Assembly (NCBI RefSeq): GCF_030013205.1
Contig: NZ_CP122648.1
Origin: Escherichia coli
GTDB lineage: Bacteria > Pseudomonadota > Gammaproteobacteria > Enterobacterales > Enterobacteriaceae
Direction: 5' to 3' (one strand)
DNA: 64,000 bases
Part shown: positions 41,196 to 46,594 of the stretch, piece by piece
Layout: each line of letters starts with the position of its first letter
Position numbering within the stretch: position 1 is the first letter of the stretch
The notes under the pieces: generated by a model
What the model saw: only the letters and a program-made list of their open reading frames with translations
The model's database searches: none
What the model was told of the DNA's origin: nothing
Position numbers and translations under genes: made by a program

Positions 41196-42293
41196 ATGGC
41201 GTACTATAACATAGAGAAACGACTAAAATCCGATGGCACACCACGCTATCGCTGTAATGTGATTATCAAAGAAAAAGGTGTTATCACTTACAGGGAAAGC
41301 AAAACATTCCCTAAACATGCTCATGCCAAAACATGGGGAACACAGAAAGTGATGGAATTAGATCTATATGGCATTCCATCATCAAATGCAGTTGACGGAC
41401 TTACAGTCCGTGACTTACTACACAAATATTTAAATGACCCAAATGCCGGAGGTAAAGCAGGCCGTACTAAAAGATATGTGCTGGAACTGCTTATGGATAG
41501 TGACATCTCCGCGATCAAACTATCTGAACTGACAGAAAATGACGTAATTGAACATTGCAGGCTAAGAAACAACGCTGGTGCAGGTCCAGCAACAGTCAGC
41601 CACGATGTTAGTTATCTTGGCAGTGTTCTGGATGCGGCCAAACCTGTATACGGAATTAATTACACATCAAACCCGGCGAAAAGCGCTCGCCCATATCTAC
41701 TTAAACTTGGTTTGATTGGTAAATCAAACCGTCGTAATCGTAGACCAGCATCTGATGAACTGGACATGCTCATTGAAGGCCTTCAACAACGATCTACTCA
41801 TAAATGCTCAAAAATTCCGTTCGTTGATATCCTCAAATTTTCTGTGTGGTCCTGTATGCGGATCGGAGAAGTATGCCGGTTACGATGGGAAGATCTCGAC
41901 CAGGAACAAAAATCTATACTCGTAAGAGACAGGAAAGATCCACGCAAAAAGGAAGGCAACCACATGAAAGTAGCCTTGCTTGGGGAAGCCTGGGATATCG
42001 TCCAACGACAGCCCAAAAAATCGGAATTCATTTTTCCATATAACAGCACTTCTGTTACTGCAGGATTTCAGAGGGTAAGAAGCAAATTAGGTATTAAAGA
42101 TCTGCGATACCATGATTTGCGTAGAGAAGGGGCAAGTCGCTTATTTGAGGCTGGTTTTAGTATTGAGGAAGTCGCTCAGGTTACAGGGCATCGTTCATTA
42201 AACGTGCTATGGCAGGTATATACCGAACTGTATCCGAAATCTTTACATAATCGTTTTGAAGAGCTCCAAAGGAGCAGAAATAAGACCTCTTGA
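41196..42293 (+). CDS. int: Tyrosine site-specific integrase (dusA-associated type, 365 aa)
   Basis: C-terminal catalytic domain with R..HxxR..Y layout (..MRIGEVCRLRWEDL.., ..RYHDLRREGASR.., ..VTGHRSLNVLWQVY..); located next to dusA 5' end. Confidence 0.9.
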   Translation: MAYYNIEKRLKSDGTPRYRCNVIIKEKGVITYRESKTFPKHAHAKTWGTQKVMELDLYGIPSSNAVDGLTVRDLLHKYLNDPNAGGKAGRTKRYVLELLMDSDISAIKLSELTENDVIEHCRLRNNAGAGPATVSHDVSYLGSVLDAAKPVYGINYTSNPAKSARPYLLKLGLIGKSNRRNRRPASDELDMLIEGLQQRSTHKCSKIPFVDILKFSVWSCMRIGEVCRLRWEDLDQEQKSILVRDRKDPRKKEGNHMKVALLGEAWDIVQRQPKKSEFIFPYNSTSVTAGFQRVRSKLGIKDLRYHDLRREGASRLFEAGFSIEEVAQVTGHRSLNVLWQVYTELYPKSLHNRFEELQRSRNKTS

Positions 42294-42354: not shown

Positions 42355-42603
42355 ATGCGTATTGAGATCTGCATAGCCAAAGAAAAAATGACTAAAATGC
42401 CAAACGGTGCTGTGGATGCGTTAAAGGAAGAATTAACCCGACGCATCAGTAAACGTTATGACGATGTAGAGGTGATCGTAAAAGCCACCAGCAACGATGG
42501 CCTTTCTGTTACGCGCACCGCCGATAAAGATTCAGCTAAAACTTTTGTTCAGGAAACTCTGAAAGATACCTGGGAGTCTGCTGACGAGTGGTTTGTTCAC
42601 TAA
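42355..42603 (+). CDS. DinI-family SOS-modulating protein (82 aa)
   Basis: MRIEICIAK...GAVDAL.EEL.RRI...[16 protein letters not shown] closely parallels DinI (MRIEVTIAK...ETWESADDWFV). Confidence 0.85.
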
Positions 42604-42720
42604 TTAGCACGTAAAATCAGTAACGGCTGGAAATCATTCAATACTCGCACTATCGAAAGTTAACCAGCCAGCCGCAGTATCCTATCATGACAAGTTACTG
42701 CGGCTTTTTACTTTTTATAT

Positions 42721-43023
42721 TTAACGGATCAACATCCAGATCAGCAGACACGCCACCACCGGCACAGCAAAATCCATCAGGCTTGCTACATCCCACGCGC
42801 GTAGATCAAAACCGCCCCACCACGGCATATTCATACGCTTGCCATGCCCGAACATTTCAATCCAGCGATATTCTGCCTGGGTGTGTTCCCGCGCAATGAA
42901 GAATGTACAACCGGCTATCGCCCCGTAAGCCCAGTTTCCGGTAAAAAGACCAACCAGTACCTGCGCAGCCACAGCACAAAGTGCATGAAGGAAAGGTGTT
43001 ATATCCATTTTCATCCCACCCAA
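42721..43023 (-). CDS. Small hydrophobic prophage protein, function unknown
   Basis: 100-aa ORF with 2-3 hydrophobic helices; downstream of the tail fibre genes. Confidence 0.4.
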   Translation of the reverse strand: MGGMKMDITPFLHALCAVAAQVLVGLFTGNWAYGAIAGCTFFIAREHTQAEYRWIEMFGHGKRMNMPWWGGFDLRAWDVASLMDFAVPVVACLLIWMLIR

Positions 43024-43050
43024 TAAAACGGGGCGCTCGGCCCCTTAATA

Positions 43051-44091
43051 TTATTTAGACGCAAGCGCCGCCTCAATTGCAGATAATCTTTGTTTTAATT
43101 CTGCGTTTTCTTCTTCCAGTGCTGTTATTCTGTCGTCTGACTCTCTGGCTACCTGAACAAGCAAGCCAGTAATACCAGAATAATCTACTGTGTAATAACG
43201 TTCACCTTCTTCACCTTCCGATCCGCTTGCACCGTCCTGATATTTCACTGCGGAACCTACAACTTCTGGGATTGCTTCCAGAGCTTCCTGTGCAATGACA
43301 CCAGCATAGGGCATACCGTTTTCTTTAAGCGTGTATGTATAGCCGTTCATTTTACGGATGCGGTCGGTTGCATTATCGATCACCTGAATGTTGTCTTTCA
43401 GATCCCGGTCGGAATGCTGGTTAAATGCGGTGGCATGACATGCACCATTAACGCTTAACATATAGGTGTTATCGGTATTTTTCTGCGCATAGAACATATA
43501 AGCGCCACCATCAACACCGACTTCATAAACAACCGGACGGCTGGAGTTGCCCCACAATTTAGCAGTAACACCAGCATAAGCGGTTCCCTGTGTGTTTAAT
43601 GTCATGGTCGACCCGTGATTAGCATATTTGATCTGTAATGTGTCTGTATAATCAAATTTAATCAGGGCATTATCTACACGATCCCCATAGGACATGAGGC
43701 ACTTACCCATTTTCAAATAACCAGCAGTGCCAGGGAAAATTAAAGTTCCTCCGTAAAGATCACTAAAGTCCCAAAAGATACCTTTTGTCCCGTTATGTGT
43801 GACGATCCTCGTCATTGTATCTTTAGTACCATCAATATTTTTTCTGGTATATATGTCACTATAAGCGTTTTCCGTTTCACCAGTCTTATTTGACAAATGC
43901 AGCTTACCGCTGAATATAGTTCCAGTTGTTGGCAATGTTTTTTGATCATAGATTACATTGCAATAACCATTCCATGTTGTTTTATTGTCTACATAAGATT
44001 TTGTTGCGTAGCTTCCTTGATCGTTTTTTAATTTGCTAACGTCGGATTTTAGCGTTTTGATGTCATCAGGAATTACTGTCGATGTAGCCAT
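43051..44091 (-). CDS. Tail fibre / receptor-binding protein with C-terminal intramolecular chaperone (peptidase S74-like) domain (346 aa)
   Basis: C-terminal ..DLKDNIQVIDNATDRIRKMNGYTYTLKE..GVIAQEALEAIPEVV..YTVDYSGITGLLVQV.. followed by a coiled-coil tail; AT-rich. Confidence 0.65.
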   Translation of the reverse strand: MATSTVIPDDIKTLKSDVSKLKNDQGSYATKSYVDNKTTWNGYCNVIYDQKTLPTTGTIFSGKLHLSNKTGETENAYSDIYTRKNIDGTKDTMTRIVTHNGTKGIFWDFSDLYGGTLIFPGTAGYLKMGKCLMSYGDRVDNALIKFDYTDTLQIKYANHGSTMTLNTQGTAYAGVTAKLWGNSSRPVVYEVGVDGGAYMFYAQKNTDNTYMLSVNGACHATAFNQHSDRDLKDNIQVIDNATDRIRKMNGYTYTLKENGMPYAGVIAQEALEAIPEVVGSAVKYQDGASGSEGEEGERYYTVDYSGITGLLVQVARESDDRITALEEENAELKQRLSAIEAALASK

Positions 44092-44100
44092 TTTTCTTCC

Positions 44101-44382
44101 TCACATCCAGCCACGAAGTTGATGCTCAACAGCAACCACGTATTCATCGAATATTGACGGTGTTTTCACATCATTAATGATGCGCACGTTTACAAAATAT
44201 CCGTCTTCCTTAACACATACCGGTTCGCCATCTTCAGTCAGTTCTCCGGTTTCTTTGTACACGTTACCTATCACGTCAATAAGAATATCATCCTGCATCG
44301 ACTCATCATCATAATAGCCGATACTCTCCATAAAGGCCGAAAAGTCGGCCCTGTCGACAAATTTGAGTGTTAAATCTTTCAT
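44101..44382 (-). CDS. Hypothetical acidic phage protein (93 aa)
   Basis: ORF tightly packed between two tail fibre genes; no recognisable motif. Confidence 0.4.
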   Translation of the reverse strand: MKDLTLKFVDRADFSAFMESIGYYDDESMQDDILIDVIGNVYKETGELTEDGEPVCVKEDGYFVNVRIINDVKTPSIFDEYVVAVEHQLRGWM

Positions 44383-46481
44383 TAGATTAACTCCCCCACC
44401 TGAGCATCAGTCAATGCCTTGTGCCATATTCTGAAATTCCTGACATGACCAAATAAATGACGTAACCCGGCTGTAGTCTGGCCTCCAATACGGATAATTG
44501 CGGTGTTCTGAATATAAGACCATGTGGTTTTTGTTTCGCTGGATATACGCCCGTTACTTACTGAGCACGTAGACTGATCTGACTTTACACGCATCCCCAT
44601 AACCATTTTTTCAAGCGATGCGTTTTCGTTTACCAGTCTGTTAGCTCCTCCAATATCGCAATAAGGAAATCCGTCGTAATCTGCTGAAGAACCGAAGCCA
44701 AGAATAATAGCCGCTCCGGTTTGATGACCGCCGGTATCAAAAACACGCGGTGCTGCATTTGGTGTTTTATTCCAGTTTTTATGAGCCTCAACCAGAACTG
44801 TAAAAGGAAGACTATAAAGATTATTCTTAATTGGAACTGTAACCATATCGCTTGCGCGGGTGCTTGCAGTTGTATCAGTTACAATAAATGACGAAGCACT
44901 TGATCCACCTTCCACTTGTGGAGTTGCGATATCCAGATAGTCTCCAGATGCTGTGTCTGAACCTTTTACTGGAGCGTATTGAACCATCGCACCAATCATG
45001 CTCTCTGTATCTAGTGCAGTAATTGTAGCCTGATAGAAAATCCAACCAGTAGCCTCATCTTTTACAGCCTTTGCAATAATACGATTTGCTGCACCACCAG
45101 TTTTATCAATTACAAGTGTTGATAAATTGAGGTAAGCATCTCCCAAAAAAGTGTAAGTAGAACCATCATGATGTTCAAATCTTAAACGACACCTTATATT
45201 TTCAACATCACTTCTGACACGGCATGAAATGGTCACATATTTTTCATCACCTGTGACATCAAATCCTTTACTGCCAGAAACCGTTACGATACTAATCGCA
45301 CTTGTTTGACCAATAAGAGTATCTTTTACAGTAAATCTACCATAAGTAAAATTAAAAGAATCCGTGGATATTTCTGTGAGTTCCAGATTGCTTGACTTAT
45401 TCCATTTAGATGGATTTGTTGAATTAAGCAGAAGATTAGTTCTTTGCCCCTCAATAAGCAGGCCATCACGTTCAAATCGTGGCTCGTCAATGGCAGCCTC
45501 TGTCAGCACACCAGATTTATTAATATAGGTTGCTTTCGATGCGCGTTTAAACTTTACAACCTTATCGCCAGGCATCGTTATTTCATCATCACCAATAACA
45601 ATCTTTTTATATGACGGCGAAAACCCCGTAATCATATCCAGTGAATCGTTAAATGGTATCCACACATCAGGAAGCGGCTGCAATACTTGTTTATACGGCT
45701 CCGCAGCCTGGCTTGCATACTCTCTGGCTGCATCCTCACTTGCTTTAGCTGCTGTCTGGCTTGCAGCGGATGCTTTCGCCGAGTTAGCCGCCGCAGTCTC
45801 GCTCGCCTTTGCGTTGGTTTCACTGGTTTTTGCAGCTTTTTGACTGTTGGCTGATGCAGTGGCAGAAGAAGCCGCCGCACTTGCAGAACCAGCTGCGGCA
45901 CTCTCGCTTTGGGCTGCTGCATCCTGACTGTTTTTCGCCGCAGTTTCGCTGGCTTTGGCATTCGTTTCGCTGGTCTTCGCTGCCGTCTGGCTGGACTTTG
46001 CGTTAGTTTCACTCGTCTTCGCAGCTTTCTGGCTGTTAGCCGCAGCAGTTGCTGATCCAGCTGCTGAAGTCGCAGAACCGGCTGCCGCGCTCTCGCTTTG
46101 GGCTGCTGAAACCTGGCTGTTTTTTGCTGCAGTTTCACTGGCTTTAGCATTCGTTTCGCTGGTCTTCGCTGCCGTCTGGCTGGACTTTGCGTTGGTTTCG
46201 CTCGTCTTTGCGGCTGTCTCGCTATTTTTCGCGTTGGTTTCTGATTTTTTGGCTGCTGTCGCGTAGTTTGCCGATGCAGTCTTTGAGGTCGCTGCCGCCT
46301 GTGCACTATTAGCTGCATTCGTTTCTGAGGTTTTCGCTGCGTTCTTCGATGATGCCGCTGCAGTTTCGGATTTCTTTGCCGCCGCTGCGCTCTGAGAGGC
46401 GGCTTCGGCGTTGCGTGCCGCTTCTTCCACCATTGCCTCAAAACGACGCAATGCCTCCGGCATGACATCATCTTCCGTCAA
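44382..46481 (-). CDS. Side tail fibre protein (Stf-like) with repetitive Ala/Ser/Thr/Lys-rich N-terminal shaft (699 aa)
   Basis: N-terminal region built of SETNAK / AAKTSETNAK repeats like lambdoid Stf; immediately downstream of J. Confidence 0.8.
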   Translation of the reverse strand: MTEDDVMPEALRRFEAMVEEAARNAEAASQSAAAAKKSETAAASSKNAAKTSETNAANSAQAAATSKTASANYATAAKKSETNAKNSETAAKTSETNAKSSQTAAKTSETNAKASETAAKNSQVSAAQSESAAAGSATSAAGSATAAANSQKAAKTSETNAKSSQTAAKTSETNAKASETAAKNSQDAAAQSESAAAGSASAAASSATASANSQKAAKTSETNAKASETAAANSAKASAASQTAAKASEDAAREYASQAAEPYKQVLQPLPDVWIPFNDSLDMITGFSPSYKKIVIGDDEITMPGDKVVKFKRASKATYINKSGVLTEAAIDEPRFERDGLLIEGQRTNLLLNSTNPSKWNKSSNLELTEISTDSFNFTYGRFTVKDTLIGQTSAISIVTVSGSKGFDVTGDEKYVTISCRVRSDVENIRCRLRFEHHDGSTYTFLGDAYLNLSTLVIDKTGGAANRIIAKAVKDEATGWIFYQATITALDTESMIGAMVQYAPVKGSDTASGDYLDIATPQVEGGSSASSFIVTDTTASTRASDMVTVPIKNNLYSLPFTVLVEAHKNWNKTPNAAPRVFDTGGHQTGAAIILGFGSSADYDGFPYCDIGGANRLVNENASLEKMVMGMRVKSDQSTCSVSNGRISSETKTTWSYIQNTAIIRIGGQTTAGLRHLFGHVRNFRIWHKALTDAQVGELI
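45800..46400. repeat. Nested tandem repeats inside the stf-like gene (189-bp duplication built from degenerate 21-bp units)
   Basis: Near-identical copies with period 189 bp (e.g. GGCTTTGGCATTCGTTTCGCTGGTCTTCGCTGCCGTCTGGCTGGACTTTGCGTT at 45951 and again at 46140); 21-bp sub-periodicity. Confidence 0.85.
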
Positions 46482-46594
46482 CCAGCCAGACTACTGCGGA
46501 CAGAATAACAGCACATAATTTACGCATAATTACCTCTCGCTTTTCTGCAATAAAAAAGGCGTCATTTCTGACGCCCGTATTGGGGTTATAAAAT

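Follow-up and report, generated by a model that had tools for sequence, protein, structure and literature searches.

Introduction

In Ur-lambda, residues 1 to 94 of the side tail fiber protein Stf form a twelve-membered collar that holds the fibers on the tail tip (PMC12617516). In the T5-like phage IrisVonRoten (Bas32), which infects O16-expressing K-12 (PMC8594841; PMC11990801), an AlphaFold-Multimer prediction by Humolli et al. has Gp24 attached to the proximal fiber Gp22, and the C-terminal 'galectin-like' domain of Gp22 is predicted to protrude as a possible extra receptor-binding domain (PMC11990801). Genetics and cryo-electron microscopy of phage DT57C indicate that LtfB hangs on LtfA by means of its N-terminal 45 residues (PMC4728585, PMC10713586). 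Here we describe the tail fiber cassette of a lambdoid prophage in Escherichia coli, found in a 64,000-nucleotide stretch of contig NZ_CP122648.1 that is called the window below. Positions count from the first nucleotide of the window, and strand is given as (+) or (-).

The best overall explanation, to which we assign a probability of roughly 0.7, is that the locus holds a decaying lambdoid side-tail-fiber cassette which, when intact, encodes a composite of a proximal and a distal fiber. To our knowledge, a two-component side tail fiber has been shown experimentally for no lambdoid phage.

Loss of the collar from a lambda-type stf gene

The window matches the chromosome of E. coli ETEC4079 (NZ_CP122643.1) at 100% identity; in this pig isolate a lambdoid prophage sits at dusA, with the fiber cassette at its left end. 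On the minus strand the genes run in the order J (46595-50074, 1159 amino acids [aa]), a 699-aa open reading frame (ORF), a 93-aa ORF, a 346-aa ORF, and a membrane ORF of 95 to 100 aa. An initial annotation, made from the nucleotide sequence alone, had placed two tail fiber genes downstream of J, and both were confirmed, at 44382-46481 (-, 699 aa) and at 43051-44091 (-, 346 aa). The position of the larger one matches that of a lambda-type stf, in the late operon and directly 3' of J (and lom).

The same annotation took the 699-aa ORF for an intact Stf-like gene, a description that did not hold. Profile matches, the RefSeq flag, and a sibling allele identify it as a 5'-truncated pseudogene (44382-46481, -) that corresponds to residues 94 to 792 of the intact protein and is missing the collar. 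Pfam PF08400 matches the ORF only at profile positions 93 to 131 of 134, phrog_1419 matches it only at positions 93 to 793, and RefSeq lists it as a pseudogene that is 'incomplete, missing N-terminus'. The sibling allele belongs to the BEN5202 prophage, which is also at dusA, is 99.2% identical, and carries an intact 199-aa lom (Ail/Lom) and a 792-aa stf. Alignment of the two shows that 897 bp are missing from the window, starting at lom codon 17 and ending at stf codon 94, so that stf codons 1 to 93 are deleted along with most of lom. The deletion junction (46479-46481, -) has a 2-bp microhomology (TG) and converts the ATG of stf Met94 into TTG, the first codon of the 699-aa ORF. Among 5,426 complete genomes of E. 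coli, only a single one fully matched an 81-nucleotide (nt) probe spanning this junction, and the lesion is therefore strain specific.

Residues 3 to 95 of the intact BEN5202 Stf align with chain 9e7m, the solved collar of Ur-lambda Stf (E = 8.4e-49). Because the deleted residues are those of the Ur-lambda collar, the deletion removed precisely the anchor; a lambda-type collar is absent from the window ORF and present in the sibling allele. What remains of lom (46468-46527, -) is its start and signal-peptide codons 1 to 16, MRKLCAVILSAVVWLV, followed by out-of-frame stf sequence that reads DGR and then a stop. These first 16 residues are identical to those of the BEN5202 199-aa Ail/Lom, and the TGA stop lies 4 nt ahead of the ATG of Stf Met100. 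An in-frame fusion of the Lom signal peptide to Stf was ruled out, because the reading frame of the lom remnant differs from that of stf and ends after 19 codons.

The damage extends beyond the cassette. A 3' remnant of the tape-measure gene (52465-53223, -) adjoins a 5' remnant of the gene for the terminase large subunit (53288-54079, -), and the genes between them have been deleted: portal, protease/capsid, connector, tail-tube, and G/T. Because these two remnants abut, the prophage has lost its portal, capsid, and tail-tube genes, while the sibling prophage in BEN5202 is complete, with a full terminase-to-tape-measure gene set. The dusA prophage is defective, or cryptic, and makes no tails. 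With the second deletion (terminase to tape measure) added to the collar loss, a fiber can no longer be mounted nor a virion made, and the window is left with the stf pseudogene and two intact downstream genes. Truncation and DEFECTIVENESS are supported by the profiles, the RefSeq flag, the sibling, the unique junction, and the prophage remnants. The cassette in this strain is a strain-specific wreck, an ordinary relic in a defective prophage.

A perfect 16-nt inverted repeat pairs 43119-43134 (chaperone region of the 346-aa gene, codons DRITAL) with 46499-46514 (lom remnant, codons CAVILS). By our own estimate, approximately 0.002 chance matches of this kind are expected in 4.4 kb; the repeat is unlike known invertase sites and is probably a coincidence.

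A lectin-type tip on the proximal fiber

The intact form of the cassette is found in strain BEN5202 as well as phages Tritos, 2G7b, and PhiR63_1. In that form the 792-aa Stf would dock on the tail tip through collar residues 1 to 94, continue as a rod of about 37 heptads, and carry a pair of lectin-type domains at its C terminus. The C-terminal 432 residues (44385-45680, -) are predicted to form tandem ConA/LamG-like jelly rolls, based on an AlphaFold2 model, Foldseek, and NCBIfam. The model, built with 51 diverse homologues, is all-beta and has a pLDDT (predicted local distance difference test) score of 91.4 and a predicted template modeling (pTM) score of 0.88. Foldseek searches with it returned two-domain LamG proteins (laminin LG4-5, E = 1.9e-6, and neurexin L2-L3) and also paired it with baseplate or fiber chains of Pseudomonas phages Pa193 and E217. 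A gp37-like tip with a separate Tfa was not what we found in this gene; its C terminus has the tandem ConA/LamG-like fold.

The NCBIfam model NF048003 (GTA_spike_fiber) matches the first jelly roll, at intact residues 435 to 636, with E = 2.6e-17 and 63.9 bits (cut-off 36). This match accounts for the odd RefSeq name 'phage head spike fiber domain-containing protein', which is misleading for an stf gene. Block-wise identity between relatives shows that the first jelly roll is variable and its flanks conserved. Such variability is the pattern expected of a glycan-binding specificity domain, and the probable ligand of the Stf lectin domains is a surface glycan, for example O-antigen. The homologous large fiber of phage mar004NP2 is annotated in GenBank as a 'confirmed structural protein by MS' (mass spectrometry).

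The 93-aa partner and the distal fiber

Immediately 3' of the lectin domain lies a gene for an acidic 93-aa protein (44101-44382, -; isoelectric point 4.1; phrog_1361). Homologues occur in 179 phage records, and in these the gene is always the next one 3' of the lectin domain. Searches of Pfam, NCBIfam, PADLOC, and PDB sequences gave no match to the protein, the best PDB hit being a chance one to GAPDH (E = 0.03), and no Tfa or other family was matched in Pfam, NCBIfam, or PADLOC. The small protein of mar004NP2 carries no MS note in its GenBank record, from an experiment that detected few proteins. The 93-aa protein is probably an assembly chaperone of the lectin-type C terminus or an adaptor. 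Between these roles, chaperone of the lectin tip is likelier than dedicated socket, because the pair of Stf and 93-aa protein also exists without a distal fiber.

The 346-aa distal fiber gene (43051-44091, -; Pfam and PHROGs matches) is intact and its product is common in E. coli, with 906 member sequences in its 99%-identity cluster. The protein is laid out as an N-terminal motif, a short helix, a variable beta domain, a T4 gp34-like knob, and an S74 chaperone. Residues from approximately 30 to 130 are only 30 to 40% identical to the Tritos protein, while the rest is 95 to 100% identical; the knob has a profile match to the T4 gp34 shaft domain (E = 1e-9). Several large clusters of homologues (P0137 and P0146 to P0150), the largest with 400 member sequences, consist of 254-aa forms whose start is equivalent to residue 93 (MTRIVTHNG...). 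In these the N-terminal motif is absent, as is most of the variable domain; they are either 5'-truncated copies in other prophages or products of mis-called starts.

The S74 chaperone that the initial annotation had suspected at the end of this protein was recovered by domain search. Pfam Peptidase_S74 (PF13884) matches residues 227 to 278 with E = 5.8e-14 and 52.6 bits, above the gathering score (cut-off 22), and the whole intramolecular chaperone spans residues 227 to 346 (43054-43413, -), beginning with the motif S227-D-R-D-L-K232 and ending in a long helix. In 40 homologues, S227, D228, R229, D230, L231, and K232 are each at least 90% conserved; the AlphaFold2 model places the C-terminal helix at 304 to 345, and residues 215 to 333 match the C terminus of S16 gp37 (6f45_A). 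The Ser/Lys pair is catalytic in S74 fibers, as established for endoNF and T5 pb1. The 346-aa fiber would trimerize with the help of its S74 domain, and the chaperone would then cleave itself off at Ser227.

At the other end of the protein, codons 1 to 15 (44047-44091, -) encode the motif MATSTVIPDDIKTLK, a putative docking peptide. The consensus M[AV]T.T[VI]IP.DI..LK is common to IrisVonRoten, FGS017, mar004NP2, swan01, and JenP1, where it heads a third gene with differing bodies (224 aa in swan01, 351 aa in JenP1, and 574 to 589 aa in IrisVonRoten, FGS017, and mar004NP2). A tblastn search found the window version of the motif in 29 records and the T5-like version, covered over at least 80%, in 61 more. 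The gene that it heads begins just after the 93-aa gene in every locus inspected. Neither the PF08400 lambda collar nor any other recognizable anchor was detected in the 346-aa protein by Pfam search or in its model.

Where the initial annotation had implied two separate tail fibers, gene linkage and the published predictions suggest that the two proteins are probably parts of one composite fiber, proximal and distal: the 346-aa protein has no anchor, and its motif is tied to the lectin fiber and 93-aa genes. The distal protein, without a virion anchor of its own, would probably be mounted on proximal Stf through its conserved 15-residue N terminus. We further propose, tentatively and at slightly less than even odds, that this N terminus (M-A/V-T-x-T-V/I-I-P-x-D-I-x-x-L-K), shared by lambdoid, T1-like, 9g-like, and T5-like siphoviruses, is a universal plug by which varied S74-capped distal fibers (224 to 589 aa) are fitted onto lectin-tipped proximal fibers, possibly via the 93-aa protein. 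If this is true, many lambdoid side tail fibers of E. coli would be two-component structures with two receptor-binding sites.

Rod repeat and length variation

The rod of Stf is rich in Ala, Ser, Thr, Lys, and Glu and is encoded at 45681-46460 (-), where 37 uninterrupted heptads correspond to intact residues 101 to 360 at a GC content of 0.55. It contains two tandem units of 189 bp (63 aa, nine heptads) at 45789-46166 (-), and the full copies (45789-45977 and 45978-46166) share 81% DNA identity. Tandem Repeats Finder reported the 189-bp period over an array reaching to 46223 (45789-46223; 2.3 copies, 83% matches, score 597), with periods of 21 and 42 bp nested in it. When the rod was matched against itself, all 12 of the 12 best lags were multiples of 21. 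Identity was 0.631 at lag 189, versus 0.345 +/- 0.022 (maximum 0.429) in 500 codon shuffles, and 0.504 at lag 21, versus 0.346 +/- 0.017 in codon shuffles. The 189-bp tandem duplication built on 21-bp (heptad) units, as first proposed in the initial annotation, is real by both analyses, and the self-comparison of stf bears out its tandem periodicity.

Rod length was taken as the distance between fixed landmarks in homologues whose collar and C-terminal domain are the same. This distance is 137, 158, 191, 200, 214, or 263 residues, and of its five differences from that in the window allele, four (-126, -105, -63, and -49) are multiples of 7. The commonest allele class (728 aa) is without exactly one 63-aa (189-bp) unit, and one cluster (P0065) has 219 member sequences; another Stf allele (742 aa) is shorter by 49 residues. 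Alleles with a single unit (P0065 and P0003) retain either the first-type or the second-type unit. Across relatives, rod length thus varies between alleles, mostly in multiples of 7 residues. The earlier suggestion of a hotspot for slippage and length variation stands as far as allele lengths do vary, but recent slippage does not fit copies that are only 81% identical. Because the units differ at 19% of DNA positions, they look like the outcome of a duplication long ago or of unequal recombination among alleles already diverged, rather than of ongoing slippage. A rod coded in heptads would change its length in 7-residue multiples through such unequal recombination.

No invertase or reverse transcriptase gene lies between int and J in the window. 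The only long inverted repeat at the locus is the 16-nt match between the chaperone and the lom remnant, and the tandem repeats are direct and in frame. Diversification by an invertible segment (Pin/Cin/Gin) or of the diversity-generating retroelement type was rejected, there being no invertase and no suitable inverted repeats. In Tritos (L003, 3668-4258), a PinR-type site-specific recombinase gene lies just past the membrane ORF; the window has no such gene.

Exchange of the AT-rich module

Base composition changes within stf. The GC content is 0.563 in J and 0.553 in the stf rod and drops to 0.409 in the C-terminal 432 codons of stf (0.296 at third codon positions), with 0.419 in the 93-aa gene, 0.414 in the 346-aa gene, 0.523 in the next ORF, and 0.507 in the window. 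The 346-aa gene is therefore AT-rich, as the initial annotation had noted, relative to both the window and J. Because GC drops at the boundary between the rod and the C-terminal part, the foreign-looking AT-rich block begins inside stf, at about 45680, and spans three coding units. The proposal that the distal module was acquired by recombination can be kept for the AT-rich part, which is horizontally exchanged, but the boundary lies inside stf and not between the two fiber genes.

Among 8,000 scored candidates, 2,477 homologues of the lectin-type C terminus were found at E <= 1e-20, and the 432-residue domain is present in 217 phage records. Its hosts are lambdoid phages, Drexlerviridae (swan01, 77%), Dhillonvirus, Queuovirinae (JenP1, 64%), T5-like phages (FGS017, 94%; IrisVonRoten, 65.9% over 432 residues), and rV5-like myoviruses (about 46%). 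The same domain is found behind lambda-, T5-, T1-, P2-, and rV5-type N termini, which identifies the AT-rich distal part as a horizontally exchanged module. Composition, spread across phage families, and block-wise mosaicism are the basis for this exchange. We suggest that the AT-rich block (lectin domain, 93-aa gene, and distal fiber) moves between phage lineages and that sub-domains are swapped within it. The cassette is of a known kind and occurs widely among lambdoid, T1-like, 9g-like, and T5-like phages.

The cassette can be seen as a widely traded host-range module in phages of E. coli and Salmonella. Its separable parts (anchor, rod, lectin tip, partner, and plug-in distal fiber) are useful for annotation, given how misleading the 'head spike fiber' name is, for predicting O-antigen or capsule tropism, and for engineering lambda-based particles with swapped fibers. 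The ETEC4079 window itself has little significance. Defective prophages of this sort are also reported to donate fiber modules to incoming phages via recombination (PMC3945230).

An Arg/Gln/Lys/Pro-rich ORF of 279 aa (45632-46471, -) overlaps the rod. The initial annotation rightly called it spurious but described it as antisense; it shares the strand of stf and lies in the +1 frame, and the longest true antisense ORF has 103 aa (45955-46266, +). Shuffles of synonymous stf codons left 246 +/- 48 codons open in the +1 frame, and 13.8% of them reached the observed length. Since the shuffles reproduce its length, a real overlapping gene was rejected. The ORF is a by-product of the Ala/Ser/Thr/Lys/Glu composition.

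Alternative explanations

The arrangement could also reflect two independent fibers, with the 346-aa protein attached to the tail tip or baseplate alone and working apart from Stf. It is common for a phage to have several independent receptor-binding proteins, the 346-aa protein is encoded by a gene of its own that has its own start codon, and the pair of Stf and 93-aa protein exists without it. A protein that attaches alone, however, would be expected to fit poorly with what is seen at its N terminus, which has no recognizable anchor and consists of 15 conserved residues and then a short helix. The same motif occurs in lambdoid, T1-like, 9g-like, and T5-like phages with unrelated tail tips, always after the lectin-type fiber and 93-aa genes. 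Because the motif tracks the cassette across unrelated tail tips, its partner should lie inside the cassette and not in the tail, and we consider two independent fibers quite improbable. Several observations nevertheless weigh against a composite. The lectin domain and the 93-aa gene occur without a third fiber gene in Lambda_4B5 and rV5-like phages, so neither is dedicated to docking; as the Stf and 93-aa pair also occurs alone, the distal fiber is an optional add-on. The motif is conserved while the Stf C terminus falls to 53% identity (PhiR11_1), and a docking surface, if any, was not located; the N terminus of DT57C LtfB is also dissimilar to the motif. The AlphaFold2 model of the 346-aa protein is moderately confident (pLDDT 64, pTM 0.31), and the fold search with it was weak, the best match being T4 gp34 with E = 5.6e-3 and a TM score of 0.19 (poor monomer model). 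Physical support for binding of the 346-aa protein to Stf was found neither here nor in the literature consulted, and docking stays putative. Within the composite fiber, the 93-aa protein might serve as a structural adaptor, a socket joining the distal to the proximal fiber, instead of a non-structural lectin chaperone. Its gene lies between both fiber genes in every lineage, and one sentence of PMC11990801 connects the IrisVonRoten distal fiber to 'Gp23', yet a figure legend in the same paper gives the proximal fiber as Gp22, not Gp23. The gene is also kept where the distal fiber is absent (Lambda_4B5 and rV5-like phages), and the 93-aa homologue in the mar004NP2 record has no MS confirmation, unlike the adjacent fiber, only a handful of proteins having been detected in that experiment. 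A socket is thus rather doubtful, and a composite fiber whose 93-aa partner acts as chaperone is the reading that we prefer.

The state of the rod and of the truncated gene leaves two more explanations to consider. Tandem 189-bp units on a 21-bp period and allele lengths that differ by multiples of 7 residues are what an active slippage hotspot would leave behind, a contingency locus now generating length variants. At 81% identity, however, the copies are too diverged for efficient slippage or a recent duplication, single-copy alleles with either unit type are expected from unequal recombination between diverged alleles, and the close relatives in complete genomes that align across the whole span all have the same length. 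Active slippage is therefore unlikely, and unequal recombination is favored. As to the truncated stf, it could still be expressed by re-initiation at Met100, with a collar-less product functional in the lysogen or as a recombination donor: the ribosome-binding site and start of lom are intact, the 19-codon remnant ends in TGA followed by TGTC-ATG in the stf frame, and the remaining 699 stf codons are open. A collar-less Stf cannot join a tail, though, and this prophage makes none in any case; RefSeq labels the gene a pseudogene, and the lesion is unique to one strain, which means that the open frame merely reflects a recent event. We regard a functional product as extremely unlikely and retain the account of a decaying cassette.

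Neighboring genes

An intrinsic terminator-like hairpin lies directly 3' of the J stop (46557-46576, -), with an 8-bp stem (5 G-C pairs), a 4-nt loop, and a T-run, and a hairpin scan found another terminator-like hairpin 3' of the 346-aa gene (43030-43044, -). Promoter scans gave no more sites than shuffled sequence (8 versus 7.6 +/- 3.2). Next in order is the predicted membrane protein of 95 to 100 aa (42721-43023, -), for which phrog_1443 was the sole family match of the 100-aa form in Pfam, PHROGs, NCBIfam, and PDB sequence searches. Its ORF is conserved just 3' of the fiber cassette in Tritos, PhiR11_1, and Lambda_4B5, in the last of which it comes directly after the 92-aa gene, and it may be a moron or exclusion gene.

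The prophage end is marked by int, a dusA-type tyrosine integrase gene (41196-42293, +), and its neighbor dinI (42355-42603, +). Adjoining dinI and the integrase, RefSeq lists an 81-bp scrap of a 'capsid protein' pseudogene (42600-42680, -) that contains an internal stop. The 5' end of dusA has been replaced by the prophage, and the annotation shows a fragment of dusA beyond the window, at the far attachment site. Other prophage cargo listed by RefSeq includes a lipopolysaccharide core heptose(II)-phosphate phosphatase (55058-55633, +), a tRNA-Gly (57201-57275, -), and an AraC-family regulator (57693-58544, -).

Comparison with known systems

Ur-lambda gpStf (PF08400; 9e7m/9mgh; PMC12617516) resembles the proximal protein in its position after J and lom, in a collar nearly identical to that of the intact allele (residues 3 to 95, E = 8.4e-49), and in the linker and long coiled-coil rod that follow, the rod of the window protein being the heptad repeat. 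It differs in that the collar is deleted in the window, and in having a gp37-like tip and Tfa where the window has the lectin module, the 93-aa partner, and a second fiber gene. Gp22, Gp23, and Gp24 of the IrisVonRoten lateral tail fiber follow the same three-gene order as the cassette. The Gp22 C terminus is 66% identical to that of the window Stf, and Gp23 is homologous to the 93-aa protein. Gp24, the homologue of the 346-aa protein by motif and position, starts with the same motif, MVTKTVIPTDITKLK, and ends in an S74 chaperone. The proximal anchor of IrisVonRoten, however, is of the T5 type and not a lambda collar, and Gp24 is a 574-aa 'T-shaped' protein with two receptor-binding domains, whereas the window fiber has 346 aa and another body.

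The branched L-shaped fibers of DT57C and DT571/2 are likewise built from a pair of proteins, LtfA and LtfB, the second of which is anchorless with a short conserved N terminus, and the tandem peptide repeats of their shaft vary in copy number. Both LtfA and LtfB of DT57C end in an S74 chaperone, as does the distal fiber of the window. The LtfB N terminus is unrelated in sequence, so the resemblance is one of design only; moreover, LtfA ends in S74 and not in a lectin-type domain, and no 93-aa gene lies between ltfA and ltfB.

Among S74 fibers and spikes (K1F endosialidase, T5 pb1, GA-1 gp12, and S16 gp37), the likeness covers PF13884, the conserved S-D-R-x-L-K motif, in which five residues separate the positions of Ser and Lys, and the C-terminal helical segment. 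The body in the window is a short fiber with a T4 gp34-like knob, unlike the triple beta-helix of the spikes. Finally, the first lectin domain of Stf matches the model for the head-spike fiber domain of the Rhodobacter capsulatus gene transfer agent (NF048003), but this domain is at the tip of a tail fiber in the window and on the capsid in the gene transfer agent.

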